Positions 6,094-41,574 of a stretch of DNA of 64,000 nucleotides are shown piece after piece. The DNA lies in NCBI GenBank assembly GCA_021372475.1, contig JAJFUJ010000162.1, forward strand, positions 15,173 through 79,172. The letters run 5' to 3'. The DNA comes from Chloroflexota bacterium (GTDB lineage Bacteria > Chloroflexota > Anaerolineae > UBA1429). The stretch's first letter is position 1; every line of letters starts with the position of its first letter. Under the pieces are notes generated by a model. That model worked only from the letters and a program-made list of their open reading frames with translations. It was not told the origin of the DNA and searched no databases. The translations under genes and the position numbers were made by a program.

Positions 6094-6103
6094 AGGCGCC
6101 CCT

Positions 6104-7939
6104 TTATACTTCGAAGCGAATTTTGACGCCTTCCAACCGCAGGCGCTGCACCAGCTCAGCCGAAGTGCTGCACAGGAGCGCTTCATCGATCATGCGTCTG
6201 GATTTCTCGATCGACCAATCCTGGAGCAGCCTGGCGATGGGCTGAAGGCGATCTACTGCCACGCTGAGCTTGATGCCTAAACCGCTCAACAGCAGCGCCT
6301 CTGGCCATTGCCCTGCCAAGACCCCGCAGACAGTCACCGGTTTCCCGCCTGCCTGGGCCATGCTGGCTATCCTGGACATGCAACGCCAAAAGGCAGGCTG
6401 CAGCCCGATACGCCCATCGAGTGTTGAAGCGCTCTCGCGGCTTTGGGCGAACATGAGCGCACCCAGGTCATTGCTACCGATACTGATAAAATCAGCTTCA
6501 GCCACCATTTCATCCAGGCACCAGACCATCGCAGGCACTTCGAGCGAAATCCCGAGTGGGAGATTCACCCGCGTACTGAGATAGCTTTCCACTGCGCGCT
6601 GCTCTTCCCTCAGGTAACTGCGCGCTGCCCGCCATTCCTGGGTGGTTCGCACCAGAGGAAGTAATGCCTGCAAATCATGGCCGATGCTGGCCCGCAGTAA
6701 TGCTCTGAACTGCACCTGCAGCATCGCCGGATTCTTGAGGATGAACGCCAAACCTCGTTTGCTGACCTCATCGCTATATGGCATGCCGGGGGTCAGGTCC
6801 GCGAGCCGAATAGTTACCGGCCTTTTGCCGCTAGCCGCCAGCAGCCCGTCTAGCTGGCGCGTCTGTTCCCCTTCATCCAACGAACTCGAACCAATATAGA
6901 ACACCTCGCTGCGCACCAGGCCGATGCCCGCAGCGCCGGCTGCTATTGCTGCCTTGACCAGCTCGCTGCTGTCAGCATTCGCCAGCAATCCCAGATGTGT
7001 CGCCGAAGCTCCCAGCGTTGGGAGCGCCGAACTGCTCCTTGCCGAGATCGGTTCGATCACTGCCTCATCGCGGACAGTGCCTTCCTGGCCATCTACAACC
7101 AGGTTATCGCAGGCAGCCATCTCTTCGAGGTCCGCAGGCTTGAAGCCGCTAACCATCGGTATCCCGAGCCAGCGCGCAGCAATCGCGGTGTGAGATGACT
7201 CGCCGCCCTCACAAGTGATAACAGCACGAATCCAACGCGCCTGCGAACCGAGTAAATGGGCGAGCAGCACCCGGTATCCCATCAGCACAAGTCCCTTATG
7301 GGCGGCAGGTTCTGCTTGTACCTGGCGCATTGCCGCGAATAAGCGCTGGCTCAGGTCCGCCAGGATCTCAGCGCCGGGAGCATTCTCAGCCGCAGGGGAT
7401 AAGACTAGATCAGCGGTGAGTCGTTCATCTGCCAGGAGCTGCCGCTCTGCGCTGACCAGCTCGATCAGGTCACCCGCGCCAATCGCGTGTAGCATCTCTT
7501 CCTCTACGGCAAGCTCTTCATCAACCCTCGAGCGCGCCAAGCTCCAATCCGGGTTTGCCTCCGGCTCAGCAGCTCCAAGATTCGGCAGTTCTCCGCCGAT
7601 ATACTCACTCGGCCACCAGGGGGCTCCGCTACCTACGCCAGGCACCAAACCGTTCGCGTTCCAATGGCGCGCCTGCTGCTGTTCAGAGCCCAGGAGCAGG
7701 ACGATAGAATCCAGCACGGATTGCGGCGTGTCCTGCGCAGCGACCAATTCAACCGTATCGCCGCAAGCGAGCGCCAACTGCAGCAGCGCGAGGGGGCTGC
7801 TGGCATCGGCTGTGCCGCGCGAGCCCACTACCTGGAGCTGCGCCTGGGCTGCCCGGACGATACCCGCAAGGCGAACTGCGATACGCGCATGTACCCCCTG
7901 CGGCGCCCTAACCACCAATTTACGTCTGATTTCGCCCAT
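6104..7939 (-). CDS. ptsI: Multiphosphoryl transfer protein: HPr domain fused to PEP-protein phosphotransferase (Enzyme I)
   Basis: N-terminal HPr-like segment (KLVVRAPQGVHARIAVRLAGIV, with the active His in GVHAR). EI phospho-histidine region GGESSHTAIAARWLGIPMVSG. EI PEP-binding region SIGSNDLGALMF. Confidence 0.78.
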   Translation of the reverse strand: MGEIRRKLVVRAPQGVHARIAVRLAGIVRAAQAQLQVVGSRGTADASSPLALLQLALACGDTVELVAAQDTPQSVLDSIVLLLGSEQQQARHWNANGLVPGVGSGAPWWPSEYIGGELPNLGAAEPEANPDWSLARSRVDEELAVEEEMLHAIGAGDLIELVSAERQLLADERLTADLVLSPAAENAPGAEILADLSQRLFAAMRQVQAEPAAHKGLVLMGYRVLLAHLLGSQARWIRAVITCEGGESSHTAIAARWLGIPMVSGFKPADLEEMAACDNLVVDGQEGTVRDEAVIEPISARSSSALPTLGASATHLGLLANADSSELVKAAIAAGAAGIGLVRSEVFYIGSSSLDEGEQTRQLDGLLAASGKRPVTIRLADLTPGMPYSDEVSKRGLAFILKNPAMLQVQFRALLRASIGHDLQALLPLVRTTQEWRAARSYLREEQRAVESYLSTRVNLPLGISLEVPAMVWCLDEMVAEADFISIGSNDLGALMFAQSRESASTLDGRIGLQPAFWRCMSRIASMAQAGGKPVTVCGVLAGQWPEALLLSGLGIKLSVAVDRLQPIARLLQDWSIEKSRRMIDEALLCSTSAELVQRLRLEGVKIRFEV

Positions 7940-9622
7940 CTAGATGACTCCTGTGAAGCCGGCAATGAAACCAACTACCGATATCCCCAGCACAACCCAA
8001 GTGGGCTTAATGCGGTGTTTGAGTACCCACAAACATAGCAGGCACATCCCCAGCACGAGCGCTTGCGGCACAAGCGCATCCAGGATACCCTGCAGGGGCA
8101 CCACTTGGCTGCCCAGGTTCAGGGTCACCAGCAGGTTCAGGGGAACCGCCCGCGCTAGCAGAACGCCCAACATCACACTGCCGACCAACTCCAGGCTTGC
8201 GAGCCACTGCTGCCAAGCTCCTGATGCGATGCGCCGCTGAATCAATGACCGGCTACCCCGGTAACCTGCCATGTAACTCAACGCACCTACTCCCCAAATG
8301 CTGATAGCCACCATCAGGGTGTAGATAACCGGCCCCAGTAAACCAACCTGGCGAGTCAATCCAATCCCTAGCATCAGAGCGAGTGGGATCCAGGTCCCCT
8401 GGATAAGCGAATCGCCGATGCCAGAGATCGCTCCCATCAACCCTATTTTGATAGCATTGACTGTATTGTAGTTTGGTTCGGCTTCGCAAGCTTGTTTCTC
8501 CTCCATAGCTGCGACCGTACCGATAACAAAGGCCCCTAGGTTAGGCTCGCTATTGAAGTAAGTAATATGCCTATTAAGAGCTTCTGCTCGTTCCCTTTGG
8601 TTAGGGTATAGACGGTTGATAATCGGGATCATGCTATGAGCAAAACCCAAACCCTGCATACGTTCATAGTTATAACTGGCATGCGAAAAGAACAGCCAAT
8701 TGAGCCATGAGACGGCCAGATCCCTTCGCTTCAACTTACGCGGGAGATACGGGGCATTGGCATCCGTTTCAGGAGCTGCCGTCTGAGCCGTAGGCTGCAC
8801 GAGCCAGGCGATGCACGCTGCTGCAAGCGCCAGAGCCAACAAAGGCCAATCGGTCAACGCCGCAACCAAAAAGCCAAGGATGAACCAGGCGCCATTACGC
8901 CCGTGCCACAACAGAGTCAGGCTATAAGCTAGGCCCACTATGGGCAATACAGCGCCCGCACCGGAGAGACCTTTAAGCAGCCAGGACGGAATCTGCGCCA
9001 GGTTCTGGCTGAGCCAGGCAGGTCCCCAATAGACGGCGGCTGCGCAAGGTAGCAGGCTGATCAATACAAGCAGCGCCTGCGGCGCGAGCACATTGCACCA
9101 TACCCAGGCTTTGGTGTTACCCTGGCTCGCCAGATATTCAGCCCACCTGACGAAAACAACATCCAGCGACATACGCAGTTGATAAATGAGGTATCCCAGA
9201 ATACCGACCGGTACAGTCAGAGCCAGGGCGGCCTCAGCATCCAGGCCACCACCCAGCGCCAACGCCGTGCCGAGGTATCCGGCCAACGAGATATCGCTGG
9301 GAAGCGAACCGCCGGCAGCAACAAAACCGAGATAAGCCAGGTTTATCGTTGCGCCGATCTGCGCGCCTTCCAACGGCGCTCCCAAAATAAGCCCGACTAA
9401 TGTGCCGCCAACCAATGGCCGGTACAACGTAAAAAAGCCAATGCCCGCAACCCAAGCGCTCTGCGACAGGTAATAACACAGGCCAATAAGGAAAGCCGCC
9501 AACAAACTAATCGGGCGGGTTGGCGTTGCGTCGGCAGCATGGCTGAGCAAACCCGGGGCGGCAAGCGATACGCCGCCAAGCAGGGCCAGCCAGGCCGCTA
9601 CCCAGCGGAATCTGGGCGCCAT
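7940..9622 (-). CDS. PTS mannose/sorbose-family EIIC-EIID fusion permease
   Basis: N-terminal half resembles ManY (RPLVGGTLVGLILGA). C-terminal half resembles ManZ (SYNYERMQGLGFAHSMIPIINRLYP, GLMGAISGIGDSLIQGTW, WVVLGISVVGFIAGF). The start is uncertain: the ATG at 9622 overlaps the IIB stop by 25 nt, and the ORF-track start at 9754 is probably too far upstream. Confidence 0.75.
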   Translation of the reverse strand: MAPRFRWVAAWLALLGGVSLAAPGLLSHAADATPTRPISLLAAFLIGLCYYLSQSAWVAGIGFFTLYRPLVGGTLVGLILGAPLEGAQIGATINLAYLGFVAAGGSLPSDISLAGYLGTALALGGGLDAEAALALTVPVGILGYLIYQLRMSLDVVFVRWAEYLASQGNTKAWVWCNVLAPQALLVLISLLPCAAAVYWGPAWLSQNLAQIPSWLLKGLSGAGAVLPIVGLAYSLTLLWHGRNGAWFILGFLVAALTDWPLLALALAAACIAWLVQPTAQTAAPETDANAPYLPRKLKRRDLAVSWLNWLFFSHASYNYERMQGLGFAHSMIPIINRLYPNQRERAEALNRHITYFNSEPNLGAFVIGTVAAMEEKQACEAEPNYNTVNAIKIGLMGAISGIGDSLIQGTWIPLALMLGIGLTRQVGLLGPVIYTLMVAISIWGVGALSYMAGYRGSRSLIQRRIASGAWQQWLASLELVGSVMLGVLLARAVPLNLLVTLNLGSQVVPLQGILDALVPQALVLGMCLLCLWVLKHRIKPTWVVLGISVVGFIAGFTGVI

Positions 9623-10089
9623 ACTAGCGGCAGGTCGTGGTAGCGTGCCTGAATTATGATATTTAAACCGCATGCCGTGAGCGATCGCAGCACCTCCTTT
9701 TCTGAAGGCGACAGGTACACCTGAGCGGAGACGCGTTGGCGTCCGGTGCGCCATCCCAGGGCACCAAGCATAACCACCTCTGGATTATAGCCGGCACTCA
9801 GCAATAGCTGCAGCTCTTCCAGGCTCGGAAGCAGCACCAATACGGCGTTCTCGTCGCTGCGCTGCCACAAGTATTCCGCCGCGTCCCGCGCATTGCCTAT
9901 CCATAATTGATAGCGTTCAGCCAGAGCCGAACGCACAAGCGCCCTTTGGCCGTCATCCAGCGACTCGTGGACGACCATCACGCACACCGGATCGAGATAG
10001 CGCAGCCAGTCGAAAATCACTTGGCCGTGAACAAGACGGTCATCCACACGCACCAATACCCGACCAGCAGGCGACATGATATTCCTCAA
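9598..10089 (-). CDS. PTS mannose/sorbose-family EIIB
   Basis: VLVRVDDRLVHGQVIFDW matches the IIB(Man/Sor) IDDRLIHGQV phospho-histidine motif. 163 aa. Confidence 0.75.
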   Translation of the reverse strand: MRNIMSPAGRVLVRVDDRLVHGQVIFDWLRYLDPVCVMVVHESLDDGQRALVRSALAERYQLWIGNARDAAEYLWQRSDENAVLVLLPSLEELQLLLSAGYNPEVVMLGALGWRTGRQRVSAQVYLSPSEKEVLRSLTACGLNIIIQARYHDLPLVWRPDSAG

Positions 10090-10536
10090 CTAGCGGATGC
10101 CTTCCGGCAAGAGGTGGATATCATGCACTGCCGCCTGCAGAACGCGCCTGGCTAAAACATCCAACGACTCGGTTCGTGCTGAACTCACGCATGCCTCCAA
10201 GACCATTGCCAGGTTCATACCGCTCAATACGACAGCTCTATCTTTCCAGGGCGGGACACCGGCTATCTGCGAGGCAATCTGCCAGGGAGTCCCACCATAT
10301 ATATCGGTTAGCACAAGAAATGAAGCCTGCGGACCCAAAGCTCGCATCGTCTCAAGGAGCCGATCGTATAAATAGCTCGGATTATCCGCTCCATCCAAAT
10401 CGAACGCCTGCAGTAGTTGGCCAGATCCCACTATTACCTCCGCAGCACACTTATATGCTGCCGCCAGGCCGGAATGGGCAACCAGGATTATATGAAACAA
10501 GATTTTGTTCTCCACATAAATCAGCCAGCCCAACAC
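10090..10536 (-). CDS. PTS mannose-family EIIA
   Basis: ILFHIILVAHSGLAAAYKCAAEVIVG...LTDIYGGTPWQIASQI resembles the ManX IIA domain (GTHGWAAE...DTWGGSPFN). The ORF extends to 10689, but the first roughly 55 codons are low-complexity with no homology, so the true start is probably an internal GTG/TTG near 10515-10536. Confidence 0.65.
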   Translation of the reverse strand: MLGWLIYVENKILFHIILVAHSGLAAAYKCAAEVIVGSGQLLQAFDLDGADNPSYLYDRLLETMRALGPQASFLVLTDIYGGTPWQIASQIAGVPPWKDRAVVLSGMNLAMVLEACVSSARTESLDVLARRVLQAAVHDIHLLPEGIR

Positions 10537-10759
10537 GATAGGAGCTCCCCTTGGCCGCGGAGATGCTTCCCTTGCATCTGTCGCCCCATCCCTTTCAGGA
10601 GCTACGTCGTCGATATCAAGCAAGGGCGCGCCAGGGGATATATGGAAATGCAGCCACCCATCTACAGAGCATCCATCCCTTTCAGCCATTCCCTATGGTT
10701 ATTCTAGCATCAGGTAGTTGGTATGGCAACGCTTCGTTATGCATTTAGGGCGTGGATGT

Positions 10760-12281: not shown

Positions 12282-13283
12282 ATGTTTGAAAAGCAGATAG
12301 GCATCGACCTCGGCACAGTCAATGTGCTGGTTTATGTGCGCGGCAAAGGCGTTGTGCTCAATGAGCCTTCTGTCGTCGCTATTTCACAGGTCGATAATCG
12401 GATCCTAGCGATTGGAAACGAAGCGCGCGCAATGCTGGGGCGCACGCCAGATACGATTGAGGTTGCCCGCCCCATGCGCAACGGCGTGATTGCCGATTAC
12501 GTCGTGACCGAGGCGATGTTGCGCTACTTTATCGGTAAAGTATGCAACCATTTTGAACGGCGCCCTGAGATTATGATCAGTGTGCCAGTCGGGGTCACCA
12601 GCGTAGAGAGCCGCGCCGTCAGAGATGCGGCTATTCAAGCAGGCGCTCGCATCGCTCATCTCATCCCTGAGCCGTTAGCTGCAGCTTTAGGCGCGAATAT
12701 GCCGATCGGCACGCCGACGGGCAATATGATTGTTAATATCGGCGGCGGTGCATCAGAGGCAGCAGTGATATCGATGTACGGTATCGTAGTATCCAACTCG
12801 GTGCGTGTAGCCGGTGAAAAGCTGGATGATGCTATCGCTGCATATATTCGTCGTAAGTACAATTTGATGATTGGCGAGAGCACGGCGGAACAAATCAAGA
12901 TAGAGATTGGTTCCGCCATTCCGCTTGATGAGGAAATGCGCCTGGAAGTGCGTGGCCGCGATCAGGTCGCCGGCTTACCCCGCACTATTACCATCACTTC
13001 TACTGAAGTGAGCGACGCGCTCTCCGAGCCGCTTGGCGTCATTGCCGCTACGGTTCGTACGGTACTGGAGAAGACTCCGCCCGAGCTTTCTTCCGACATC
13101 ATCGACCGCGGGATGGTCATTGTGGGGGGCGGGGCGCTGCTGCGTAATATCGACCGCTTCTTTACGCGCGAGACGGGTGTGCCCTGCCACGTTGCTGAAA
13201 AGCCGATGCTGTGCACGGCCCTGGGAGCTGGGCGCGGCTTGGAGTATCTACCGCTCATCCGCCGAGCAGTGGAGTCTACCTGA
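12282..13283 (+). CDS. mreB: Rod shape-determining actin homolog MreB
   Basis: [34 protein letters not shown] is the canonical MreB N-terminus. GGAGG RBS 5 nt upstream. Confidence 0.92.
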
Positions 13284-13316
13284 TTCCAGGAGCGCCAGGT
13301 CCCTCGAGAGAGCCTG

Positions 13317-13928
13317 TCAAGCCCAGTGCTGAGCGCGAATAAAATCATCTGCTGTGTTGATATTAAAGAACGAGATTAAGTGTGGATCATACAACTTAAT
13401 CTCGTTTTCGCTTACCTCGCGAATATTTTGCCCAGTATAAAAACTGATAACGCGCATCTTGTTCTGAGCAATGGCCGTGCGTAACGACGGGACTACCTTA
13501 CGGTGATAAAGCGCATGAAACGGCTCCAGGCCAACCGACAGCTTGGGCACAACTATCGTATATTCCTGTCGAAGGCTCAACATATAGCGTACCAGTGGGA
13601 GCTGGATGAACGGCATATCACAGGCCATGAGGAAGACCCAATCATTGCGGGCGTGCTCCAGCCCCACAAAGATGGCCGGCAATACTCCTCTGTTGCCAGG
13701 AGGATCGTGAACGACTGCCGCGCCCTTTACTGTGATATCTTGGTCAGCGCGCGCCACACAAATAACATCATCGCTGAGTTGCAGTGCGGTAGAGACACCC
13801 CTTTGGATAAGCGGGACGCCCTCCAGCAGCAGGGTTGCTTTATCCTGGCCGATACGTTCACCGCGCCCACCTGCAAGAATAACGATGCTGACAGGTAACT
13901 CAGGCGATGAGTAATTCTGAATATTCAC
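13317..13928 (-). CDS. mobA: Molybdenum cofactor guanylyltransferase (MobA-like NTP transferase)
   Basis: VSIVILAGGRGERIGQDKATLLLEGVPLI and MACDMPFI motifs. Confidence 0.75.
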   Translation of the reverse strand: MNIQNYSSPELPVSIVILAGGRGERIGQDKATLLLEGVPLIQRGVSTALQLSDDVICVARADQDITVKGAAVVHDPPGNRGVLPAIFVGLEHARNDWVFLMACDMPFIQLPLVRYMLSLRQEYTIVVPKLSVGLEPFHALYHRKVVPSLRTAIAQNKMRVISFYTGQNIREVSENEIKLYDPHLISFFNINTADDFIRAQHWA

Positions 13929-13960
13929 ACTATCATCCGCGGCAGTGACTAGTAATAGAT

Positions 13961-14000
13961 ATGAAAATAAAGGATGCCCTTGCGATGAATCGGGGCATCC
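13961..14000 (-). terminator. Rho-independent terminator downstream of the ACP gene (GGATGCCC ... GGGCATCC, T-run on the minus strand)
   Basis: 8-bp inverted repeat at 13972-13979 / 13992-13999, with an A-run on the plus strand at 13963-13970 (a T-run on the minus strand). Confidence 0.5.
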
Positions 14001-14030
14001 TAGATCCCTAAGTGATGTTCAACCGCGAAG

Positions 14031-14267
14031 CTAACCCAGTTTTTTCTCTGCCAGATTTACGACATCTGCGACGGTAACGACATCCTTGGTCTCATCCTCG
14101 CTAATCGTAAAACCAAACTCATCCTCAAGGTCGTTCAACAGCTCAACCAGATAGAGCGAGTCTACTTTGAGATCCTCGCGCAGTTTGGCGGTAGGAACGA
14201 CTTCTTCAGGCTTTACCTGCAGCCGATCCACGATAATCTTCTGAACGCGCTCAAACGTAGTGCTCAT
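14031..14267 (-). CDS. acpP: Acyl carrier protein (78 aa)
   Basis: Phosphopantetheine-attachment context LKVDSLYLVELLNDLEDEFGFTISEDE (DSL motif). Monocistronic, with its own terminator. Confidence 0.8.
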   Translation of the reverse strand: MSTTFERVQKIIVDRLQVKPEEVVPTAKLREDLKVDSLYLVELLNDLEDEFGFTISEDETKDVVTVADVVNLAEKKLG

Positions 14268-14422
14268 TAGCCCTCCTAACCTGGTAAAAGAATGTGTTTG
14301 GCAGCAGATTCAGCCTATTATAACATCCGCGGATATGGGAGTCAATCATTCGCCTAAACCTGCGCTGCATTTCTTAACACTCTATCTGGCAATTGGTTAC
14401 GCGTTTCGTCGAATATGAATCA

Positions 14423-14451
14423 TTGACACAGCTTCGTATTCCAAGTAAAGT
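14423..14451 (+). promoter_or_regulatory. Sigma-70-like promoter for idi: -35 TTGACA (14423-14428), 17-nt spacer, -10 TAAAGT (14446-14451)
   Basis: Consensus -35, a plausible -10, then a GGAGGA RBS at 14466-14471 and ATG at 14476. Confidence 0.4.
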
Positions 14452-14475
14452 CATTATGTTATGCGGAGGAATAGG

Positions 14476-15492
14476 ATGCTAGAGCAGCGTAAACGCGAAC
14501 ATCTGGATATCTGCTTGAAACAGGGCGTGAACTCGTCTATCGCGAACGGCTTTGAGCGTTACCGGTTCACACATAATGCTCTCCCTGAGCTTGATTTAGA
14601 CCAGGTGCAGCTCAGCACGAGCTTTCTAGGGCATACACTCGAGGCGCCGTTATTGATTTCAGCGATGACCGGCGGGACCAGGGATGCTGCGGTGTTGAAT
14701 GCGCGTCTCGCTCAGGCCGCGAACAAGTTCGGGATAGCGATGGGGGTCGGTTCCCAGCGCGCGGCAATCGCGAATCCGGCTTTGCTGGAGACCTATCAGG
14801 TGCGCAGGTACGCGCCTGATATCATGCTCTTGGCGAATTTAGGTGCAGTTCAACTCAACAATGGCTATGATCTCGCCGAATGTCAACAAGCGGTAGCCAG
14901 TATCGATGCTGATGCCTTGGTCCTGCATCTAAACCCGCTCCAGGAAGCGCTGCAAAGCGATGGCAATACTAATTTCAGCCAACTGCTGGATAAAATCCAC
15001 GGTATATGCAGCGCTCTGCCGGTCCCCGTAATCGTCAAAGAAATAGGTTACGGGCTCTCCCCCCAGACAGCCGAGTATCTCCTAGAGGCCGGCGTGGCTG
15101 CTCTCGATATTGCCGGCGCGGGTGGCACTAGTTGGAGCGAAGTCGAGCGTTTGCGCTCCGCCGATTCAGCCAGGGCGCAGATTGCATCTGGATTCAGAGG
15201 GTGGGGCATCCCCACCGCAGAAGCGCTCAATACGCTGCATCGAGCCTTTCCTCAAGCCCTTTTGATTGCCAGCGGCGGTATTCGCGACGGTATCGAGGTG
15301 GCCAAGGCGCTGAGCCTCGGTGCGAGCCTGGCAGGTATCGCCAGACCTTTATTGATTGCCGCCCATAGCTCGCAGGACGAACTAGAGGCTGCGCTCCAGG
15401 TTATCATTGAGCAGTTGCGCATCAGTATGTTTTGCACCGGCTCACGGACTCTGGGGGAACTGCAGAACAGTATTACCGCTGTTAGCGATTAA
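14476..15492 (+). CDS. fni: Type 2 (FMN-dependent) isopentenyl-diphosphate delta-isomerase
   Basis: MLEQRKREHLDICL...SAMTGGTRDAAVLN...GASLAGIARPLL matches IDI-2. Start moved to ATG 14476, which sits behind a GGAGGA RBS; the track start at 14461 lies inside the RBS. Confidence 0.85.
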   Translation: MLEQRKREHLDICLKQGVNSSIANGFERYRFTHNALPELDLDQVQLSTSFLGHTLEAPLLISAMTGGTRDAAVLNARLAQAANKFGIAMGVGSQRAAIANPALLETYQVRRYAPDIMLLANLGAVQLNNGYDLAECQQAVASIDADALVLHLNPLQEALQSDGNTNFSQLLDKIHGICSALPVPVIVKEIGYGLSPQTAEYLLEAGVAALDIAGAGGTSWSEVERLRSADSARAQIASGFRGWGIPTAEALNTLHRAFPQALLIASGGIRDGIEVAKALSLGASLAGIARPLLIAAHSSQDELEAALQVIIEQLRISMFCTGSRTLGELQNSITAVSD

Positions 15493-15504
15493 GGTGGTTG
15501 TAGG

Positions 15505-17217
15505 ATGAGCGAATGGGTAATCACCACGAACAGGGCGCGCTGCCGAGATTGTTATCGCTGCGTGCGCATCTGCCCTGTCAAGGCCGTGCGCGTCGAAAAC
15601 GGCCAGGCGCAGATTGTGCCGGAGTTATGTGTGGCTTGCGGAAGCTGTGTGCGGGAATGCCCTCAGGGCGCCAAAGTGGTTCGAGATGACCGAGCATTAG
15701 TGCGTCAGGCAATCAAGTCCGGCCGGCCGGTATATGCTACCGTTGCTCCTTCTGCGCCGGCATATTTTGGCATCAAGGAGTTCGACCAACTGCACGGGGC
15801 GCTTGAACAATTGGGATTCACTGACGCCTTTGAGACCGCATTTGGCGCGCAGATGGTTGCTCCGGCGCACCGCGAATTTGTAGAGCACGACCGGAATAAG
15901 TGGCCTATCGTCGCTTCCGCCTGCCCGGTAGTGGTGAACCTTTTCGAGCGCTATTATCCAGACTTGCTTGCCCACCTGGCGCCGATTGTTTCGCCGATGA
16001 TTGCCCACGGCCGGTACCTGCGCAACAAGTACGGCCCCGAAGCGCTGATTGTCTTCATTGGGCCATGCATTGCAAAAAAAGAGGAGCTGCGCGATCCTGA
16101 GGTTGCCGGCGCGGTAGATGCTGCCCTTACCTTCAACGAGTTGGAAGAGTGGCTCGGGCAGGATAATGTCGCGCTACCAGAGCCTTCCGCAGAATTGGCC
16201 GATGCGCCACAAGCCAATGCGCGCCTTTTCCCCGTGGAAGGCGGTTTGGTCGGCACAGCCAGGATGAACACGGATATGCTCTCCAGCCAGATAATTGCCA
16301 CGTCAGGGATGGATGCCTGCCGTGATGTATTGGACAGTATTCGTTCCGGCGAGTTGACGGTGTGTATGGCTGAGTTAATGGCTTGCGACGGCGGATGCAT
16401 TAACGGGCCGGTTATGTCGGCCAAGAGCGGTCCGAGCCTGGCGCGCCAAAAGGTGATGGCTTATGCTGGGAAGCGCCAGACACAGCCGCTGCCCTCTCCC
16501 GAAGAGCGCCCCAATCTGGAAAGGAAATACAACGACCACAACATCAAGATGCCGGATTTCGCGGAAGAGCGCATCCGTGAAGTGATGCGGCTGGTCGACA
16601 AGTACACGCCCGAAGACGAACTCAACTGTGGCGCTTGTGGTTATGCGACTTGCCGCGACAAGGCGATCGCTACTTTGCGCGGTATGGCCGAAAGCACGAT
16701 GTGCATCCCCTATATGCGCCGGCGGGCGGATTCGCTCCGCCAACTTGTTATGGATGTAACGCCGAATGCTATCATCATTGTCGACAAAAACCTACGTATC
16801 CTGGACATGTCCCCTTCTGCGCAGCGCATGTTTGAGCGCAGCCTCAATTCCGTCCAGGGGCAGCCGATCAATATGGTTATTCCGTTGGCCAATAGCTTTG
16901 AGCGCGTTCACGAAACTGGCATCGCGGTGATGAACGAACTGCTGCGCATTAATGACAACCTGGTTGTCGAGCAATCCGTTGTGCCTGTAACTTTCCAGAA
17001 CATGCTTATGGCGATTCTGCGCGATGTGACCGAACGCGAGGTGCAGCAGGCCGAGTTGACCCACATCCGCACAGAAACCCTGACGCGTACCCAGGAGGTG
17101 ATTGCCAACCAGATGCGCGTTGCACAGGAAATTGCCCAACTCCTCGGCGAAACGACCGCTGAAACCAAGATGGCCCTAACAAGGCTGGCCAAGCTGATTG
17201 AGAACGGCGAATCCTGA
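15505..17217 (+). CDS. Sensory [FeFe]-hydrogenase-like protein (HydS/HfsB type): 2x[4Fe-4S] N-domain, H-cluster domain, Cx2Cx4Cx16C motif, C-terminal PAS domain
   Basis: CRDCYRCVRICP and CVACGSCVRECP ferredoxin motifs. H-cluster motifs L1 ASACP (variant of TSCCP), L2 GPCIAKKEE, L3 ELMACDGGCINGP. Exact CGACGYATC-x16-C motif. PAS-like segment (VTPNAIIIVDKNLRILDMSP...). AGGTGG RBS. Confidence 0.8.
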   Translation: MSEWVITTNRARCRDCYRCVRICPVKAVRVENGQAQIVPELCVACGSCVRECPQGAKVVRDDRALVRQAIKSGRPVYATVAPSAPAYFGIKEFDQLHGALEQLGFTDAFETAFGAQMVAPAHREFVEHDRNKWPIVASACPVVVNLFERYYPDLLAHLAPIVSPMIAHGRYLRNKYGPEALIVFIGPCIAKKEELRDPEVAGAVDAALTFNELEEWLGQDNVALPEPSAELADAPQANARLFPVEGGLVGTARMNTDMLSSQIIATSGMDACRDVLDSIRSGELTVCMAELMACDGGCINGPVMSAKSGPSLARQKVMAYAGKRQTQPLPSPEERPNLERKYNDHNIKMPDFAEERIREVMRLVDKYTPEDELNCGACGYATCRDKAIATLRGMAESTMCIPYMRRRADSLRQLVMDVTPNAIIIVDKNLRILDMSPSAQRMFERSLNSVQGQPINMVIPLANSFERVHETGIAVMNELLRINDNLVVEQSVVPVTFQNMLMAILRDVTEREVQQAELTHIRTETLTRTQEVIANQMRVAQEIAQLLGETTAETKMALTRLAKLIENGES

Positions 17218-17230
17218 GGAGTATTGAACT

Positions 17231-18406
17231 ATGCGTCAGGTCGTTGAGGTAACCTCCGAGAGCCTCTCAAAATACGGCGAGGAGCTGTGCGGCGATACCG
17301 TCAAAATCAATACTACGGATACTTACCTTACCGTGGTTCTGTCGGATGGGTTAGGCAGCGGTGTCAAGGCAAATATCCTCTCTACCCTCACCGCGCAGAT
17401 TGCCGGCTCGATGTTCGAACAAGGTGCTGAAATCCAAGATGTGATGCAGACGCTGGTCGATACCCTGCCAGAGTGCCAGGTGCGCAAGCTGGCGTACGCG
17501 ACCTTCGCTATGGTAAAAGTTTACCGCGGCCATGAAGTTTACCTGGTTGAATACGACAGCCCTCCGCTCATCCTGGTGCGCAACAATGAAATTATCCAAG
17601 TCGATACCAAGGAAAGGGTTGTCAGCGGGCGCAAACTGCGCGAGGCTAAATTCGAGGTATATGACAAAGATTATATGGTGCTTGTCAGCGACGGCTACGA
17701 GCACGCCGGTGTAGGCGGAATATATCGCCTCGGTTGGGGGTGGCAAAACATAGCCATCGCGGTCAAACGTTGGGCGCAGACCGGCTGCGACGCGTATAGC
17801 CTGACGCAAGCCCTCAAGCGCACCTGTACCAAGCTCTATGACGGCAAGCCAGGGGATGACGCGACAGCAGTAGGAATGCGCGTGCGGCCAGCCATCGTTG
17901 TCACCATCCTGACCGGACCGCCGGCAGATAAAAACAATGACGAGCTAATCGTGCGCAAGCTGATGGAAAGCCCTGGGCAGAAAGTGATTTGCGGCGGCAC
18001 CACAGCACAAATGGCCGCCCGAGTACTTGGCAAAGAACTCAAGGTAGACTGGGTGCCGCCTAACCAGCGCGTCTCGTCCAATTCGCGCCGCAAACATACA
18101 CCGCCTACTGCCCGGTTGGAAGGAGTTGACCTTGTCACCGAAGGTATCCTGACCCTCGGTCAGACGGTCGAATTGCTGGAAAAGGCACACGACATCCACG
18201 AGCTGCCTACCGATGAAGATGCGTCAACCCGGCTGGCTCGCATTTTGTTGAGTGCTGACGTCATCACGCTTGTCGTAGGCACTGCGGTCAATCCCAACCA
18301 GGTTGCGGATGTCATCCGCGGCGAGCCGATGCGGATGATCTATGTCCGCCAGCTCCAGCAAATCCTCGCACCCACTACCAAGAAGGTTAACCTTATCAGC
18401 ATCTAG
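17231..18406 (+). CDS. SpoIIE/PP2C-family serine phosphatase (HfsC-like partner of the sensory hydrogenase)
   Basis: PPM-type metal-binding motif VVLSDGLGSGVKANI. 14-nt gap after the hydS-like gene, same strand. The C-terminal roughly 170 aa has an unassigned fold. Confidence 0.65.
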   Translation: MRQVVEVTSESLSKYGEELCGDTVKINTTDTYLTVVLSDGLGSGVKANILSTLTAQIAGSMFEQGAEIQDVMQTLVDTLPECQVRKLAYATFAMVKVYRGHEVYLVEYDSPPLILVRNNEIIQVDTKERVVSGRKLREAKFEVYDKDYMVLVSDGYEHAGVGGIYRLGWGWQNIAIAVKRWAQTGCDAYSLTQALKRTCTKLYDGKPGDDATAVGMRVRPAIVVTILTGPPADKNNDELIVRKLMESPGQKVICGGTTAQMAARVLGKELKVDWVPPNQRVSSNSRRKHTPPTARLEGVDLVTEGILTLGQTVELLEKAHDIHELPTDEDASTRLARILLSADVITLVVGTAVNPNQVADVIRGEPMRMIYVRQLQQILAPTTKKVNLISI

Positions 18407-18411
18407 CTGTG

Positions 18412-19899
18412 CTAAGATTGCGTTAAGCCCAGGCGCACATATTGCTCAGGCGGCGCATCGTTAGCGCGCATCTCAGCAACCAACATATCAATCATCCGGC
18501 TCTCCAAGCGCGCGTCCTTCAGCGGGCGCTCCTGAAGCGGGTCATCAGCCAGGTCATATAGATAGGTACCGAACTGTTTCCCTGCGTTCAAGCCAGCTCT
18601 GGCAGGGATGCGCATGGTATGGCATCCTTTAGTAAAGGAAAAGGGCTCCGCCAGGGAGACGCCGTTAAACTCTTCTACGCTGAACATCCCCGTCATATGG
18701 GTAGGCATCAGGGTATATTCATACAGAGGGGTATTCTCGGGCGTAGCATTGGCCCGCATATAGACGTATCGCCCGTCGGTAACGTTCACATGCGCGCCGT
18801 GCAACCCAAATAGTCCGGCTTCCCGCACCGGCGTATCGTCGGCAATGGTTGCCCGCAGCGGATTCCCTTGCATATCGGCGGGTAAAGGAACACCAAAATA
18901 CGCTAGCAGAGTTGCCGGCAGATCGATCGTCTGTACCAGGGATTTACGGCGTTCGCCGCGCGCACCACAGCGCGGATCCCAGATGAATAACGGGGTATGC
19001 GCCACCTCGTCCCAAAAAGGCTGGACAACCTTGGCCCACCAATCGTGTTCGCCCAGCAGAAACCCGTGGTCTGTGTTCACGATGAGCAGCGTATCCTTCC
19101 ATAGATCCAATTCATCCATCACATCCATCAGGCGCCCCAGGTACCAATCGCACATACTGTGCAGGGCAGCGCTCATACAGCGCATATGCTGCACCTCGTC
19201 AGGATTTTCGACCACGCGGGCGTAATTCGGCCAATCAAAGTGCTGGCCGTGATACGCATGCGGGTAAAGGTCTTGGAAGCGCTGCGAGCTAAAATAGGGT
19301 TCGTGCGGGTCAAAAGTCTCGATAGTCAAGAACCAGTCGTCCTGGGCATGGTTCATCCGCAGGAAGTCAATGCCGGCTTGAAACGTGCGCGGCTGCGGCA
19401 TCTGTTCCTCGTTGGCCGTATGCAGCCGGTTGACCCAATCCTGCCGCAGCCTGGCGGTTGGTCGGGGATTGTTCAGGAACTGGGGCAAATCGATTGGTCT
19501 CAGGTCAGGTATCCAGGCATCACCCTCCTGGCCACGGAAACTCTCCCAGGTGCTGTAGCGATTGTGATAGGTGCAGCCGCCGTCCTCCCAATAATGGTAA
19601 TGGTCGCTGGCAAGGTGGCTGGTAATACCATGTTTTTTTAGGATTTCGGGTAACGAGTCATCGAAGGGCTCCAGGGGGCCCCAACTGCGGTGTAGAAAGT
19701 TGTAACGGCCGGTATGCAGCTCGCGCCTGGCGGGCATGCACGGCATCGAACCGACATATGCGGTATCAAAGGTCACGGCATGTTCCGCCAACCGCGTAAA
19801 GTTCGGCGTCATCACCCAGCGATAAGCGCCAGGCTCGTGCTGATAGGGGCTGAGCATACGCCGGTTAAGCGAATCATACATCAGCATGATAGCCCGCAT
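18412..19899 (-). CDS. Sulfatase-family hydrolase (Cys-type, formylglycine-dependent)
   Basis: Sulfatase signature C-M-P-A-R (SMPCMPARRELHTGRY) and the general alkaline-phosphatase-superfamily fold. Confidence 0.75.
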   Translation of the reverse strand: MRAIMLMYDSLNRRMLSPYQHEPGAYRWVMTPNFTRLAEHAVTFDTAYVGSMPCMPARRELHTGRYNFLHRSWGPLEPFDDSLPEILKKHGITSHLASDHYHYWEDGGCTYHNRYSTWESFRGQEGDAWIPDLRPIDLPQFLNNPRPTARLRQDWVNRLHTANEEQMPQPRTFQAGIDFLRMNHAQDDWFLTIETFDPHEPYFSSQRFQDLYPHAYHGQHFDWPNYARVVENPDEVQHMRCMSAALHSMCDWYLGRLMDVMDELDLWKDTLLIVNTDHGFLLGEHDWWAKVVQPFWDEVAHTPLFIWDPRCGARGERRKSLVQTIDLPATLLAYFGVPLPADMQGNPLRATIADDTPVREAGLFGLHGAHVNVTDGRYVYMRANATPENTPLYEYTLMPTHMTGMFSVEEFNGVSLAEPFSFTKGCHTMRIPARAGLNAGKQFGTYLYDLADDPLQERPLKDARLESRMIDMLVAEMRANDAPPEQYVRLGLTQS

Positions 19900-20005
19900 A
19901 GTACCACTCCCAATGGCTAGTTGTTCTCAATCTCGGATTTACAATAAGGTTAATCGTATTCTGACATTTCGTCAACAGGATGATTGTTCTCCACTGGCCG
20001 ACAAC

Positions 20006-20034
20006 CTTGACGCCATCAGCGGTGGAGGTTATAC
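20006..20034 (+). promoter_or_regulatory. Sigma-70-like promoter: -35 TTGACG, 17-nt spacer, -10 TATACT
   Basis: Hexamers at 20006-20011 and 20029-20034, 30 nt upstream of the 20065 start codon. Confidence 0.45.
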
Positions 20035-20064
20035 TCTCCGTCAGCTATCCGGTAAGGAGCGCGT

Positions 20065-21630
20065 ATGACTAGCGTGAAACGCACTCTCCACCAGCGCCTG
20101 TGGAACCCTTATATCATCGTCTTTATCGGCAGCGCCGGCAGCATGATAACAGAGCTGGTGGCCAGCCGGATGATCGCCCCCCAGATAGGTGTATCGCTAT
20201 ATACCTGGACCTCGGTCATCGGTGTCATCCTGGCGGGCAGTTCCCTCGGGAATTACCTCGGTGGGCGCCTTGCCGACCGCTACGGCTCACCACGGCTGCT
20301 TGGAATCGTCTTCGCATTGGCCAGCATCGCCAGCCTGTCAATCCTGCCACTGCGCGAATTAGCTAACTCGATCCGATGGGGCCCCAATTTCCCGCTGCTG
20401 CTGCGGGTAGTCTTGTATATCGGGATTATCTTTATCCTCCCCAGCCTGATGCTGGGCTGCGTGTCGCCGATCGTCGTCAAAATCAGCCTCAGCAATCTGG
20501 AGCATTCCGGTTCGACCGTCGGCAAAATCTACGCCTGGGCAACCGTGGGCTCCATCGTTGGCACATTCGCCACCGGCTTTTGGTTGATCTCGCTCTTTGG
20601 CACAAAAACAATCATCGTGCTGGTTTCCGCCGTGCAGATGATAGTCGGCGTATGGTTTCTGGCTTCTGCCAAGCTGAAGCCAGCACTGATTGGCGCCACA
20701 GCAGCCTTACTGATATATGGATGCCTGCTAGGCATCCTGTATTGGCGCGGGATGCTCGGTTCAGAGTGCATGCGGGAAACGAATTATTTTTGCATCAACA
20801 CCTACGACCGCGACCAGAATGAGGATATTAAAGCGGTGGAGGGAGCACAATACAAGCCGCTCATTATCCGTGAATTGGTGCTGGATCGGCTTGTGCATAG
20901 TTATGTTGACCTAGAGAATCCCTCGAGGCTGGTATACGGCTATGAACGCACGTATGCGGATGTCATCAAGCCGCTTTTGGCCAGGAAAGGTATGCTGGAT
21001 TCATTCTTTATCGGTGGCGGAGGTTATACTTTCCCCCGCTATTTGGAGCTGCAAGCTCCCGGAAGCGAACTGGTGGTAGCAGAAATCGATCCCGGGGTGA
21101 CTGAAGTCGCCCGCGAAAGGCTTAATCTGCCGTTGACGACGACAATCAAGACGGTGAACCTTGATGCGCGCATCCTGATGGAGACACAGCAGCAAGATAA
21201 AGCGTATGACCTGGTGTTTGGCGATGCTTTTAACGACTACTCCGTGCCCTACCATCTGACCACGCTCGAGTTCGACCAGATGATTAGCCATATGCTACGC
21301 GACGACGGTTTGTATATCGCCAATATCATCGACGGCGGCACGCACGGGCATTTCCTGCGTGCCTTTGTGCGCACCGTGGAGGCGGTATTCCCTTATGTTG
21401 AAGTAATCCCCTCCACTGAGGGCTGGCGAACCGCTTTCCGCACGACCTTTGTCATTGTTGCCAGCCGGCAGCCTATCGACCTCTCAAGCTTGTTGCAGTC
21501 GACTGCGCCGCTTTCGCACCAAGAATTGGCTGAGTATCTGGCGCTCGAAAAACCGCTTATTTTGACCGATGACTATGTGCCGGTAGATACGCTGCTAGCG
21601 CCAGTTTATGTAGATTCCGAGCGCATGTAA
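20065..21630 (+). CDS. Fused MFS-like membrane domain / spermidine synthase-like aminopropyltransferase
   Basis: About 230 aa of N-terminal multi-TM region, followed by the FIGGGGYTFPRY...LVFGDAFNDYSVPYHLTT spermidine-synthase fold. Confidence 0.7.
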   Translation: MTSVKRTLHQRLWNPYIIVFIGSAGSMITELVASRMIAPQIGVSLYTWTSVIGVILAGSSLGNYLGGRLADRYGSPRLLGIVFALASIASLSILPLRELANSIRWGPNFPLLLRVVLYIGIIFILPSLMLGCVSPIVVKISLSNLEHSGSTVGKIYAWATVGSIVGTFATGFWLISLFGTKTIIVLVSAVQMIVGVWFLASAKLKPALIGATAALLIYGCLLGILYWRGMLGSECMRETNYFCINTYDRDQNEDIKAVEGAQYKPLIIRELVLDRLVHSYVDLENPSRLVYGYERTYADVIKPLLARKGMLDSFFIGGGGYTFPRYLELQAPGSELVVAEIDPGVTEVARERLNLPLTTTIKTVNLDARILMETQQQDKAYDLVFGDAFNDYSVPYHLTTLEFDQMISHMLRDDGLYIANIIDGGTHGHFLRAFVRTVEAVFPYVEVIPSTEGWRTAFRTTFVIVASRQPIDLSSLLQSTAPLSHQELAEYLALEKPLILTDDYVPVDTLLAPVYVDSERM

Positions 21631-25908: not shown

Positions 25909-27138
25909 TCAGTCGGCCATCTCCGCGGTAATTTCGAGCGCCAGCCTGCGGAAATAACTTTTGTTCGGGTCGATGCTGGTATCGTATTCAGCAGCCACGA
26001 CTTGGGCTGTAATACGCAGGGAACGTGTCTCCAGGATGATTAACGCCCCAGGCTCGGCAAGTACCAGGTCGCCTTTGGCGCTCAAACGGTTGTTGAGCGT
26101 AGGGTTCTCATAGGCGTATTCGCTCACCAGGAACTTGCTGACGCTGCTCACATCGCCTTTATCAAACAACCATACCTCCAGAGCATCCACATGCTGAGGA
26201 CCGATAGCCGGCAACACATCGCTCACGCCGATGCCACAATCCCCCATAAAGACGCCTTCAGGCGTAGAGATGGTGAACGAGCAGTCAAAGTCGTCAGCGC
26301 CAAAGGCATATTCAGCTTCATAACTACCCAACACGCCCGCCTCTGCGCTCTCAACCGCGTCTGTCAGGATATTCTCGTTCTGTCTATCGTCTGTAGCAGG
26401 CCGGGTAAGGTGCGGGTCGGGAGCCTGGAATTTCGGGGTAGGAGTAATGCGCTGCGGTTCGGCGTCTAGCTCTTCGACCGGCACAAAGGGCTGCCCGCTG
26501 GTATACTGGGCAGCCGCCTCACCGCTCAGCGCATGGCTGGGCGCGGTATCGAACTGCTCCACGTCAGGCTCGCTCTCAGCCTCAACCTGCATGCTGGTAT
26601 CGCCAGGCACCCCTGGCTCCTCACCACCCTCCTGGCGTTTGAGATTTTGTTTGGCCATATACCATAGCCCCAGAGCCAGCAGGGCCAGAAAAACCAACAC
26701 GGCGCCAATAAAGAGCAAGATACGCCATACTTCTACATTGCGCCGGGCATTAGGCTCTTCCTCCAAAGCTCCTTCCTGAGGCAGGTTGAGAGCATCGGCC
26801 ATGCTCAACAGACGCTGCGCCCCCTGTTCATCACTTTGATTCTGGAGGGCTGTAGCTTCCTGCTCAATCACGGCCCCAAGCTGCTTCCAGGTCAAATCAT
26901 CGTTGACCAGACGGCCAAGGCGCTGGCGGGCAAGTTCCTCATCGCCATTGAGCGCGAAAGAATCGGCAGCCATGCTAATCCAGGCGCTGCGGTCGGCCTC
27001 TGGAAGCGTATCGGTTGCATCTGCCCCCTTTGAGAATGCCCCCCCTATGGCAAGGCCCAAGAGCAGACAGACGACGCCAATACCGATGAACCAGGCAAGT
27101 TTGTTATCACGGTCAAGTGAAAATCCCCTTTTTCTCAT
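25909..27138 (-). CDS. Hypothetical membrane-anchored protein with an acidic, low-complexity central region
   Basis: GAGGAGG RBS 5 nt before ATG 27138; the track start at 27240 is rejected. Two predicted TM helices and a D/E-rich linker. No recognisable domain. Confidence 0.5.
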   Translation of the reverse strand: MRKRGFSLDRDNKLAWFIGIGVVCLLLGLAIGGAFSKGADATDTLPEADRSAWISMAADSFALNGDEELARQRLGRLVNDDLTWKQLGAVIEQEATALQNQSDEQGAQRLLSMADALNLPQEGALEEEPNARRNVEVWRILLFIGAVLVFLALLALGLWYMAKQNLKRQEGGEEPGVPGDTSMQVEAESEPDVEQFDTAPSHALSGEAAAQYTSGQPFVPVEELDAEPQRITPTPKFQAPDPHLTRPATDDRQNENILTDAVESAEAGVLGSYEAEYAFGADDFDCSFTISTPEGVFMGDCGIGVSDVLPAIGPQHVDALEVWLFDKGDVSSVSKFLVSEYAYENPTLNNRLSAKGDLVLAEPGALIILETRSLRITAQVVAAEYDTSIDPNKSYFRRLALEITAEMAD

Positions 27139-27158
27139 TCCAGCCTCCTCAGTATATG

Positions 27159-38094: not shown

Positions 38095-38233
38095 GATACC
38101 TTCGACCGCATCTATATCGCCGATTCTTTAAAAAATCCACCAAACGGAGTATAGGCAGCCGACCTCTCTTTTGCTATTATAGAGGCAGCCTTGGCAATCA
38201 CGTGATTTAGGCTATGAGGTGTCGGCATTGGGG

Positions 38234-38266
38234 CCGTTTAGCAAACGTTGCTGAACGGTTTTTTTA
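38234..38266 (+). terminator. Terminator-like hairpin (CCGTTTAGCAA-acg-TTGCTGAACGG + TTTTTTT), 22 nt upstream of the GOGAT operon start codon
   Basis: Imperfect 11-bp inverted repeat followed by a 7-T run. It may terminate the upstream binding-protein gene, or act as a leader attenuator. Confidence 0.45.
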
Positions 38267-38287
38267 TTCATCCGAGATGGGGACAAA

Positions 38288-39802: not shown

Positions 39803-39822
39803 CGTATCTTGGGAGTTAAGGC

Positions 39823-40281
39823 ATGAAAAAGAAGCGTATCGTGATCCACGAGGAATACTGCATCGGCTGCCGGCTGTGCGAGGTGCACTGCCTGGTGCAG
39901 CACAGCAAGTCCAGGGATATCGTCAAAGCCTTCAAAGAAGAACGCTCCAGTACGATGGCCCGCGTCATGGTGGAAGAGAGCGGCCCGGTTTCGTTTGCCT
40001 TACAGTGCCGCCAGTGCAGCGAATCCAACTGCCTCGAAGCCTGCATCTCAGGCGCTATGCACCGCGATCCGGAGACTGGCGCCGTAGTCTGCGACGAGAG
40101 CAAATGTGTGGGCTGCTGGATGTGCATCATGGTCTGCCCGGCCGGCGCAATCCGCCAGAACCTGACCGGTACGCACATCGCCAGCAAATGCGACTTGTGC
40201 TACGGCTCTGCTATGCCGGCCTGCGTGCTAAACTGCCCCAATGAGGCTTTGACGTATGAAGAAGTGGAAGTGAGGGACTAA
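39823..40281 (+). CDS. 4Fe-4S dicluster ferredoxin-domain protein (GOGAT electron-transfer subunit)
   Basis: CIGCRLCEVHC and CVGCWMCIMVCP cluster motifs. Confidence 0.75.
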   Translation: MKKKRIVIHEEYCIGCRLCEVHCLVQHSKSRDIVKAFKEERSSTMARVMVEESGPVSFALQCRQCSESNCLEACISGAMHRDPETGAVVCDESKCVGCWMCIMVCPAGAIRQNLTGTHIASKCDLCYGSAMPACVLNCPNEALTYEEVEVRD

Positions 40282-40284
40282 CCC

Positions 40285-41562: not shown

Positions 41563-41574
41563 GAGGTATGAGCA

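Follow-up and report, generated by a model that had tools for sequence, protein, structure and literature searches.

A pair of adjacent genes in a 64 kb stretch of Chloroflexota DNA (contig JAJFUJ010000162.1; "the window" hereafter denotes this whole stretch) probably forms the conserved core of a putative system for H2 sensing, in which an [FeFe]-hydrogenase of group C (M2f, HydS/HfsB type) is paired with a dedicated HfsC-type PP2C Ser/Thr phosphatase (Table 1). An earlier note on this DNA had proposed a HydS/HfsB-type putative sensor with an HfsC-like partner, and the domain architecture, signature residues, full-length orthology, and conserved pairing all bear out this assignment. While that identification is right and its accompanying caveats are mostly sound, its novelty was overstated, as HydDB already lists an entry "[FeFe] group C3, phosphatase-linked (putative)" (PMC5037454). 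The locus is a further member of an already catalogued, very common module, and is ordinary for its family. The additions made here are modest, namely, a conserved, subfamily-specific Rossmann-like C-terminal domain in the phosphatase, and a Met at the position of CpI M497 in the clade to which the window protein belongs.

The 570-amino-acid protein combines two N-terminal ferredoxin-type motifs, an H-cluster domain, a C-terminal Cx2Cx4Cx16C motif, and a PAS domain. This order had been read from the sequence in the earlier note, the motifs quoted there all occur verbatim, and Pfam agrees. The ferredoxin motifs read CRDCYRCVRIC and CVACGSCVREC, and their eight cysteines (C13, C16, C19, C23, C42, C45, C48, and C52) are all invariant in an alignment with 16 homologs. 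Residue equivalences were derived from HMMER alignments to the solved HydA1 and DdH structures and are expressed in CpI numbering. In these alignments, C140, C188, and C294/C298 correspond to the H-cluster ligands C300, C355, and C499/C503, and K191 and E194 to K358 and E361; C140, C188, C294, C298, and K191 are kept in 198 of 198 homologs. As judged from these positions, the ligands for the two N-terminal [4Fe-4S] clusters, the H-cluster, and the C-terminal [4Fe-4S] cluster are all retained. A139 aligns with C299, G186 with M353, and M292 with M497, and two further alanines, A121 and A159, occupy what we take, with less certainty, to be the proton-pathway positions E279 and S319, from a reading of the alignment and CpI numbering. 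By the same alignments, the protein has lost what group A enzymes need to turn over rapidly, with C299 replaced by Ala139, M353 by Gly186, and the E279 and S319 positions by Ala. Binding of a [2Fe]H subcluster and slow H2 turnover are putative properties of the window protein, predicted as for group C. The Gly at position 353 recurs in about 99% of the 198 homologs and in 76 of 78 orthologs, and has been reported in about half of sensory enzymes (PMC10055695).

Homologs of the protein are abundant, with more than 6,000 found at E <1e-10, many of them from Chloroflexota metagenome-assembled genomes (MAGs). The closest are about 571 residues long and 60-65% identical, many again from Anaerolineae/Chloroflexota MAGs, and one NCBI "Chloroflexi bacterium" MAG protein is 100% identical. 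The suggestion that such systems are essentially uncharacterized in this lineage is contradicted by the hundreds of Chloroflexota/Anaerolineae MAG homologs at about 60-65% identity and by a 2021 report of group C hydrogenases in Chloroflexi (bioRxiv 10.1101/2021.08.23.457424).

To separate sensor from catalytic enzyme, we rely on a comparison set of 80 species-level genomes with a HydS ortholog, assembled by alignment-based profile search of genome contigs. The Cx2Cx4Cx16C motif is present in 78 of 78 orthologs and in none of 47 catalytic paralogs from the same loci. Against the window protein, none of the 78 orthologs scores below 372 bits and none of the 47 other hydrogenase genes above 166 bits; 40 of the latter possess C299, M353, and M497 and lack the C-terminal Cys motif. 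This contrast in both motif and score settles the identity of the window protein as a sensor-type rather than a catalytic hydrogenase. The features that define M2f/group C (PMC8163306) are found together: the N-terminal clusters, the H-domain ligands, the loss of C299 and M353, and the Cx2Cx4Cx16C motif plus PAS. TmHydS, the characterized example of the group (PMC8163306), has the same domain order of two [4Fe-4S] motifs, H-domain, Cx2Cx4Cx16C, and PAS, as well as Ala in place of C299 (A131 in TmHydS, A139 here) and Gly in place of M353 (PMC8163306, PMC10055695), and differs in having Ser (S267) rather than Met at the CpI M497 position. Group D (M2e) enzymes likewise share the N-terminal clusters, an H-domain without the proton-relay Cys, and the C-terminal Cx2Cx4Cx16C motif, but lack PAS and have Ser/Thr at position 353 (PMC8163306); the PAS domain and Gly at this position therefore assign the window protein to group C rather than D. 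A Ser/Thr phosphatase gene 13 nucleotides (nt) downstream and the same pairing in 69 of the 80 related loci fit the HydDB C3 "phosphatase-linked" class, the choice between C1 and C3 being made by gene linkage only. When the PDB was searched by sequence, every hydrogenase chain recovered was of the group A type, and a solved structure thus appears to be lacking for sensors of groups C and D.

All NCBIfam hydrogenase models fall below their trusted cut-offs with this protein (best TIGR04105, 217 bits against 450), as would be expected of an Fe-S protein of the Nar1/NARF kind, which has the Fe_hyd_lg_C fold but is not a hydrogenase. These models, however, cover groups A and B only. The window protein is instead a full-length ortholog (37-65% identity over 570 residues) of HydS-type genes in bacterial HydABC/Rex/AdhE loci, it keeps the L1-L3 cysteines, K358, and E361, and it possesses the M2f-specific C-terminal cluster and PAS domain. 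A Nar1-like identity, for which we see next to no chance, was rejected on orthology, kept ligands, and this C-terminal architecture.

Two departures from the common pattern were observed among the Bacillota-type sensors (loci L030-L080). The proton-relay Cys (CpI C299; window residue 139) is retained in 12 of 50 despite complete sensor architecture. In the second ferredoxin motif, 20 of 50 have Asp in place of the second Cys (window residue 45), and the cluster there may be Asp-ligated or of the [3Fe-4S] type.

The association of the sensor with the phosphatase is widespread and intimate. A PP2C gene is present in 69 of the 80 HydS loci and lies directly downstream in 68, overlapping hydS by 4 nt in 45 of these 68, which points to translational coupling and probably to a stoichiometric complex. 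The lineages that bear the pair include Chloroflexota, Syntrophales-type bacteria, Bacillota, Atribacterota, Armatimonadota, and others. In the window, the phosphatase ATG lies 14 nt past the hydS stop, the distance originally reported, leaving a 13-nt gap. The neighbors of the HydS orthologs are more variable. A small thioredoxin-like 2Fe-2S protein occupies the upstream HfsA position in 44 loci (by Pfam), HydC, HydB, and HydA of bifurcating hydrogenases occur in 30-40 loci, Rex in 22, and AdhE in 5. In one block of loci (L011-L027, mostly Syntrophales-type/Deltaproteobacteria MAGs by title), a gene for a 170-residue HATPase_c kinase-like protein lies on the opposite strand in 12 loci, and GltD-fused hydrogenases of about 1,150 residues neighbor the pair. 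These recurrent neighbors agree with the published hfs and Ruminococcus albus contexts (PMC5707799, PMC11837493). Four Chloroflexota loci (L001, L005, L006, and L008) have the pair without a hydrogenase within about 10 kb; the stand-alone arrangement is thus not unique to the window. A protein of about 182 residues without a Pfam family is encoded downstream of PP2C in four loci, three from Anaerolineae and one titled delta proteobacterium; absent from the window, it may belong to the module in particular lineages only. Separately, in 10 Clostridia-type loci (e.g., L052:12900-14381), the gene directly after PP2C encodes a protein of about 500 residues (family F7), whose sole Pfam match is a marginal one to the zinc-ribbon-like Cas12f1-like_TNB (2.4e-4).

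The phosphatase is even better conserved than HydS, with 60-85% identity over its full 391 residues among the best 120 matches listed. Its metal-binding motifs read GD22, SD39GxGxG, SD154G, and GD209D210, and 34 homologs share all five aspartates (D22, D39, D154, D209, and D210), which also align to the structure 3pu9. An AlphaFold (AF2) model (mean predicted local distance difference test score, pLDDT, 85; predicted template modeling score, pTM, 0.80) displays a PP2C domain, and Foldseek matches it to the Sphaerobacter PP2C 3pu9 (5.8e-12) and also to SpoIIE, RsbU, and RsbX. The catalytic residues are intact and activity is predicted. Since the PP2C domain dominated the Foldseek search with the whole model, the C-terminal domain was folded separately; by structure comparison, the resulting model resembles cofactor- and nucleotide-binding Rossmann-like domains. 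An exhaustive HMMER search recovered this domain in 719 representative clusters; where the protein is full-length (about 385 residues), the domain always spans roughly residues 225-390, a constant C-terminal place that marks it as a signature of the phosphatase subfamily. In the literature searched, there was no description of this domain or of a HydS-PP2C complex, and HydS and PP2C were never mentioned together.

The gene content of the window defines how far the comparison with named systems can be taken. It was assessed in two ways: 46 of its 48 called genes were scanned with Pfam (all but a 1,075-residue open reading frame [ORF] at 45468-48695 and a 119-residue ORF at 56812-57171), and all six frames were searched with hidden Markov model (HMM) profiles of HydA, HydB, HydC, Rex, the HATPase_c kinase, the HfsA-like 2Fe-2S protein, and AdhE. 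Besides ferredoxin-domain cross-hits, the six-frame searches matched only the HydS and PP2C genes, and by both approaches the window lacks a second hydrogenase, HydB, HydC, an HATPase_c kinase, Rex, and AdhE. The radical-SAM/GTPase maturases HydE, HydF, and HydG and STAS proteins were not found either, these being covered by the Pfam scan of called genes only. The earlier statement that neither a catalytic hydrogenase nor HydEFG occurs here thus stands, for the hydrogenase by both methods and for the maturases by Pfam.

In the Thermoanaerobacterium hfsABCD operon, HfsB is the sensor, HfsC a serine phosphatase, and HfsD a ferredoxin-linked [FeFe] hydrogenase (PMC11837493, PMC8924675), HfsA being small. 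The HfsB-like and HfsC-like genes of the window are adjacent and in the same order. Unlike hfsABCD, however, the window holds this B-C core only, after idi, with no HfsA-like or HfsD-like gene by six-frame HMM and no fermentation gene adjoining; lacking counterparts of HfsA and HfsD, it falls short of a complete hfsABCD operon. A closer likeness exists in loci L069, L079, and L074, where HydS and PP2C stand between a small 2Fe-2S protein and a ~490-residue hydrogenase, in some cases with AdhE beside them. The earlier note had also listed an "HfsD-like kinase" as missing; no kinase is indeed present in the window, but the label is mistaken, because HfsD is a ferredoxin-linked hydrogenase (PMC11837493, PMC8924675). 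As far as the secondary accounts of Ruminococcus albus go (Zheng et al. 2014 via PMC5707799, PMC11837493), its HydS is a PAS-containing sensor hydrogenase proposed to signal through a Ser/Thr phospho-relay, with an adjoining Ser/Thr kinase and HydA2, neither of which accompanies the window pair. A functional parallel is the group 2b [NiFe] system HoxBC/HoxJ/HoxA, where a low-activity hydrogenase acts through a PAS-containing partner on phosphorylation control (PMC5707799, PMC8163306); it is evolutionarily unrelated and employs a histidine kinase and response regulator instead of a PP2C Ser/Thr phosphatase. Finally, the window phosphatase shares the catalytic fold and metal-binding motifs of SpoIIE, RsbU, and RsbX. 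However, its regulatory part is the C-terminal Rossmann-like domain, whereas partner-switching PP2Cs have an N-terminal RsbU-N, PAS, or response-regulator domain, and the window has neither a STAS substrate (Pfam scan) nor an RsbW-type kinase (Pfam scan and six-frame HMM). With both STAS protein and kinase missing from the window, this is not an RsbU/RsbV/RsbW-type partner-switching module.

How might such a pair operate? In TmHydS, a genuine H-cluster is bound, H2 is turned over slowly, and reduced states are stabilized (PMC10055695), and deletion of hfsB in Thermoanaerobacterium raises adhE expression and ethanol yield in a manner dependent on hfsC/D (PMC5707799). In the mechanism we favor, H2 at the H-cluster would shift the redox or conformational state of HydS, and this change would reach the phosphatase by way of three parts of HydS, the C-terminal Fe-S module, the PAS domain, and the tail, probably within a stoichiometric complex that uses the Rossmann-like C-terminal domain. 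Altered dephosphorylation of an unlinked phosphoprotein would then tune fermentative and redox metabolism. Conservation along HydS favors such a relay: mean column conservation is 0.86 in the C-terminal Fe-S module and 0.71 in the tail, above the H-domain (0.65) and PAS (0.58), and the C-terminal Fe-S motif is the best-conserved segment of the protein. The tail is a candidate output or docking element. Its position 541 is Gln in the window protein and in Bacillota-type sensors, and His in 26 of 28 closer loci (L001-L029). The PAS domain bears a weak likeness to the NtrB/FixL PAS structures, and a PDB sequence search with PAS plus tail gave marginal PAS matches only (E >= 0.1).

Several considerations weigh against this interpretation. 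The sensory role of the family is called putative in reviews (PMC8924675), and H2-dependent signaling via PP2C is likewise putative for every member. The simplest redox relay is at odds with the observation, made on a related group D enzyme, that H2 fails to reduce the C-terminal cluster (PMC13104023). Membership in C3 is putative and follows from gene linkage. The window yields no hydEFG among its Pfam-scanned called genes, which leaves H-cluster maturation in the organism putative, and it links no phosphatase substrate, kinase, or regulator to the pair. Lastly, the case for co-transcription with idi is one of spacing and missing hairpins alone.

Some of these points would suit a sensor of the redox pool rather than of H2, one that reads ferredoxin or NAD(H) reduction through its accessory Fe-S clusters, possibly as an apoprotein without the [2Fe] subcluster, and in which PP2C, perhaps via a nucleotide-binding C-terminal domain, makes the phospho-signal. 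Such a sensor would accommodate the failure to find hydEFG in the window, a conservation peak that lies in the C-terminal Fe-S module and not in the H-domain, the resemblance of the PP2C C-terminal domain to cofactor- and nucleotide-binding Rossmann-like domains, the presence of Rex, an NADH sensor, in the neighborhood of 22 loci, and the description of HfsB as possibly responsive to redox potential (PMC11837493). We regard it as a serious rival, if an unlikely one.

Quite improbable, in our estimate, is that HydS is a slow but physiologically catalytic hydrogenase controlled by phosphorylation, with PP2C and an unlinked kinase acting on HydS itself, for instance at T550/T551. Slow H2 turnover is indeed documented for TmHydS and TamHydS (PMC10055695, PMC8163306), the Thr-Thr motif of the tail is kept in about 90% of the 78 orthologs, and the HATPase_c Ser-kinase-like gene flanks the pair in the 12 Syntrophales-type loci. 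Yet HydS has lost the canonical proton pathway, neither its PAS domain nor its C-terminal cluster serves catalysis, and catalytic paralogs usually adjoin the pair in other lineages, suggesting a division of labor; phosphorylation of HydS, moreover, would be purely conjectural.

The favored mechanism, H2 sensing relayed from HydS to its phosphatase, also admits a more specific version, which is speculative and on present evidence rather unlikely. Here the pair would be a self-contained H2-to-phosphorylation transducer, with the undescribed Rossmann-like domain either docking on the tail of HydS or binding NAD(H) or another nucleotide, so integrating H2 and redox inputs. In such Chloroflexota it would be uncoupled from hydrogenase operons, sensing external (interspecies) H2 via a low-potential H-cluster tuned by Met497, and controlling unlinked targets genome-wide. 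The CpI M497 position is Met in the window protein and in 23 of the 28 closer loci (L001-L029), and Leu, Asn, or Ser in most Bacillota-type sensors. In TmHydS, the S267M substitution reduces activity and shifts the [4Fe-4S]H potential down by some 50 mV, and a response only at low H2 was suggested (PMC10055695). Because of this effect, the Met497 clade may be tuned differently, and such tuning, we speculate, may suit low-H2 syntrophic niches.

Upstream, hydS is preceded at a gap of 12 nt by the gene for a type-2, flavin mononucleotide (FMN)-dependent isopentenyl-diphosphate isomerase (IDI), a spacing that had been taken to suggest co-transcription. The 12-nt gap is correct, but the adjacency is lineage-specific and says little about function. 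The idi-hydS-PP2C order recurs in the nearest relative, 79% identical (L081/L082), where the entire murA-mreB-mobA-ACP-idi-hydS-PP2C-sulfatase block (ACP, acyl carrier protein) is syntenic, and idi is found in none of the 80 other HydS loci; the linkage thus reflects recent shared ancestry and carries no functional weight. On these grounds an idi-linked function, by which the module would regulate or answer the flavin-dependent type-2 IDI and be tied to isoprenoid synthesis, was rejected. It is very improbable, even with the tight 12-nt gap, the ribosome-binding-site-like GGTGG..AGG without an intervening terminator, and the order kept in the 79%-identical relative speaking for it. A ribosome-binding-site-like GGAG likewise precedes the PP2C gene. 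No terminator-like hairpin was found between the idi, hydS, and PP2C genes in a scan not above its shuffle background, and the three genes are probably co-transcribed, as inferred from this and from their spacing only. A weak sigma-70-like match upstream of idi (Table 1) is a possible promoter of the transcript, and no other plus-strand promoter-like site was seen from there to the PP2C end. The promoter scan is likewise at shuffle background (8 sites found against 5.6 expected), and for this reason co-transcription stays at the level of inference. A search for the Rex operator TTGTGAA-N4-TTCACAA that allowed up to 3 mismatches found nothing in the vicinity of the operon; its single match, at 41589, compares with 1.5 expected by chance. 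An Rfam scan of 13000-20500 found no family. On the 3′ side, a convergent sulfatase gene abuts PP2C, with only 5 nt between the two stop codons (18406-18412) and without a terminator-like hairpin; the same close convergent layout is found in the nearest relative (L081). The start of idi is probably ATG 14476, with GGAGG 6 nt upstream, and not the first ATG at 14461, the TIGR02151 match starting at residue 9 of the long form.

Table 1. Coordinates of the sensor-phosphatase locus, its domains and motifs, and associated features (window positions unless a locus is named; residues refer to the encoded protein).
Feature	Position	Strand	Evidence or remark
Type-2 (FMN-dependent) isopentenyl-diphosphate isomerase gene, idi	14461-15492	+	TIGR02151 2.6e-122, 408 bits (cut-off 281)
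Putative sensory [FeFe]-hydrogenase gene (hydS), 570 residues	15505-17217	+	HydS/HfsB-type group C (M2f)
Two ferredoxin-type CxxCxxCxxxCP [4Fe-4S] motifs (C13-C23, C42-C52)	15541-15660	+	Fer4 family matches, ~1e-7 (residues 5-56)
H-cluster domain	15727-16410	+	Fe_hyd_lg_C 4.5e-55 (residues 75-302); alignment to solved HydA/DdH
L1 ASACP, residues 137-141	15913-15927	+	
L2 GPCIAKKEE, residues 186-194	16060-16086	+	
L3 ELMACDGGCINGP, residues 290-302	16372-16410	+	
C-terminal Cx2Cx4Cx16C [4Fe-4S] motif, CGACGYATC-x16-C, residues 375-400 (C375, C378, C383, C400)	16627-16704	+	PF04060 FeS 1.1e-8 (residues 373-402)
PAS domain	16741-17034	+	PF00989 1.6e-7 (residues 413-495), plus PAS_8, PAS_4, PAS_9
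Conserved C-terminal tail, QMRVA[HQ]EIAQLLGETTAETK..., HydS residues 515-570	17047-17214	+	No Pfam family
SpoIIE/PP2C phosphatase gene, 391 residues	17231-18406	+	HfsC-like
PP2C (SpoIIE/RsbU-type) domain of the HfsC-like partner	17231-17890	+	PF07228 5.2e-14, residues 30-218
Rossmann-like alpha/beta C-terminal domain of the phosphatase, residues 221-391	17891-18406	+	Conserved, unannotated in Pfam, subfamily-specific
Sigma-70-like promoter match TTGACA-17-TAAAGT upstream of idi	14423-14451	+	10/12 positions; weak
~182-residue protein of related loci	L002:12949-13497, L004:13104-13658, L007:17280-17834, L008 (gene after PP2C)		

Other features of the window are recorded here for completeness. 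An acyl-carrier-protein gene (81 residues, DSL phosphopantetheine motif; 14024-14267, minus strand) lies between the MobA-like gene and idi; it was missed in the initial ORF listing, which used an 80-residue cut-off, and its L081 homolog carries PF00550. A mannose-family phosphotransferase system cluster (6104-10689, minus strand) contains unusual HPr-Enzyme I (611 residues) and EIIC-EIID (604 residues) fusions and a 199-residue EIIA. In a 933-residue protein (3385-6186, minus strand), a galactokinase-type GHMP kinase is fused to a nucleotidyltransferase (MobA-like/NTP_transferase), which suggests a bifunctional enzyme of sugar-1-phosphate activation. A large nitrogen-assimilation block (36943-56833, plus strand) includes a split archaeal-type glutamate synthase, with Fer4+Glu_synthase, Pyr_redox_2, GATase_2, and GXGXG as separate genes, as well as NadE, CarA (a probable CarB lying outside the Pfam scan), a PucR-type regulator, two glutamine synthetases, and a 1,186-residue GlnE with an ACT-like domain. 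Two ORFs, 25909-27240 (minus strand, 443 residues) and 39771-40244 (plus strand, 157 residues), gave no Pfam match at E<=1e-4; the latter, inside the glutamate synthase cluster, shows faint ferredoxin-like cross-hits.

For H2 sensing via [FeFe]-type sensors in anaerobes, this locus leaves the picture as it is, adding one more instance. The mechanism of the family is better approached in genetically tractable hosts. The unit that is invariant across phyla consists of HydS and the 391-residue PP2C only. Candidates for the signaling interface are best drawn from the most constrained parts of this unit, namely, the C-terminal domain of PP2C and, in HydS, the C-terminal Fe-S module together with the tail. 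The stand-alone pairs of Chloroflexota, in turn, point to targets outside hydrogenase operons, and such targets bear on H2-dependent regulation in syntrophic and fermentative communities.

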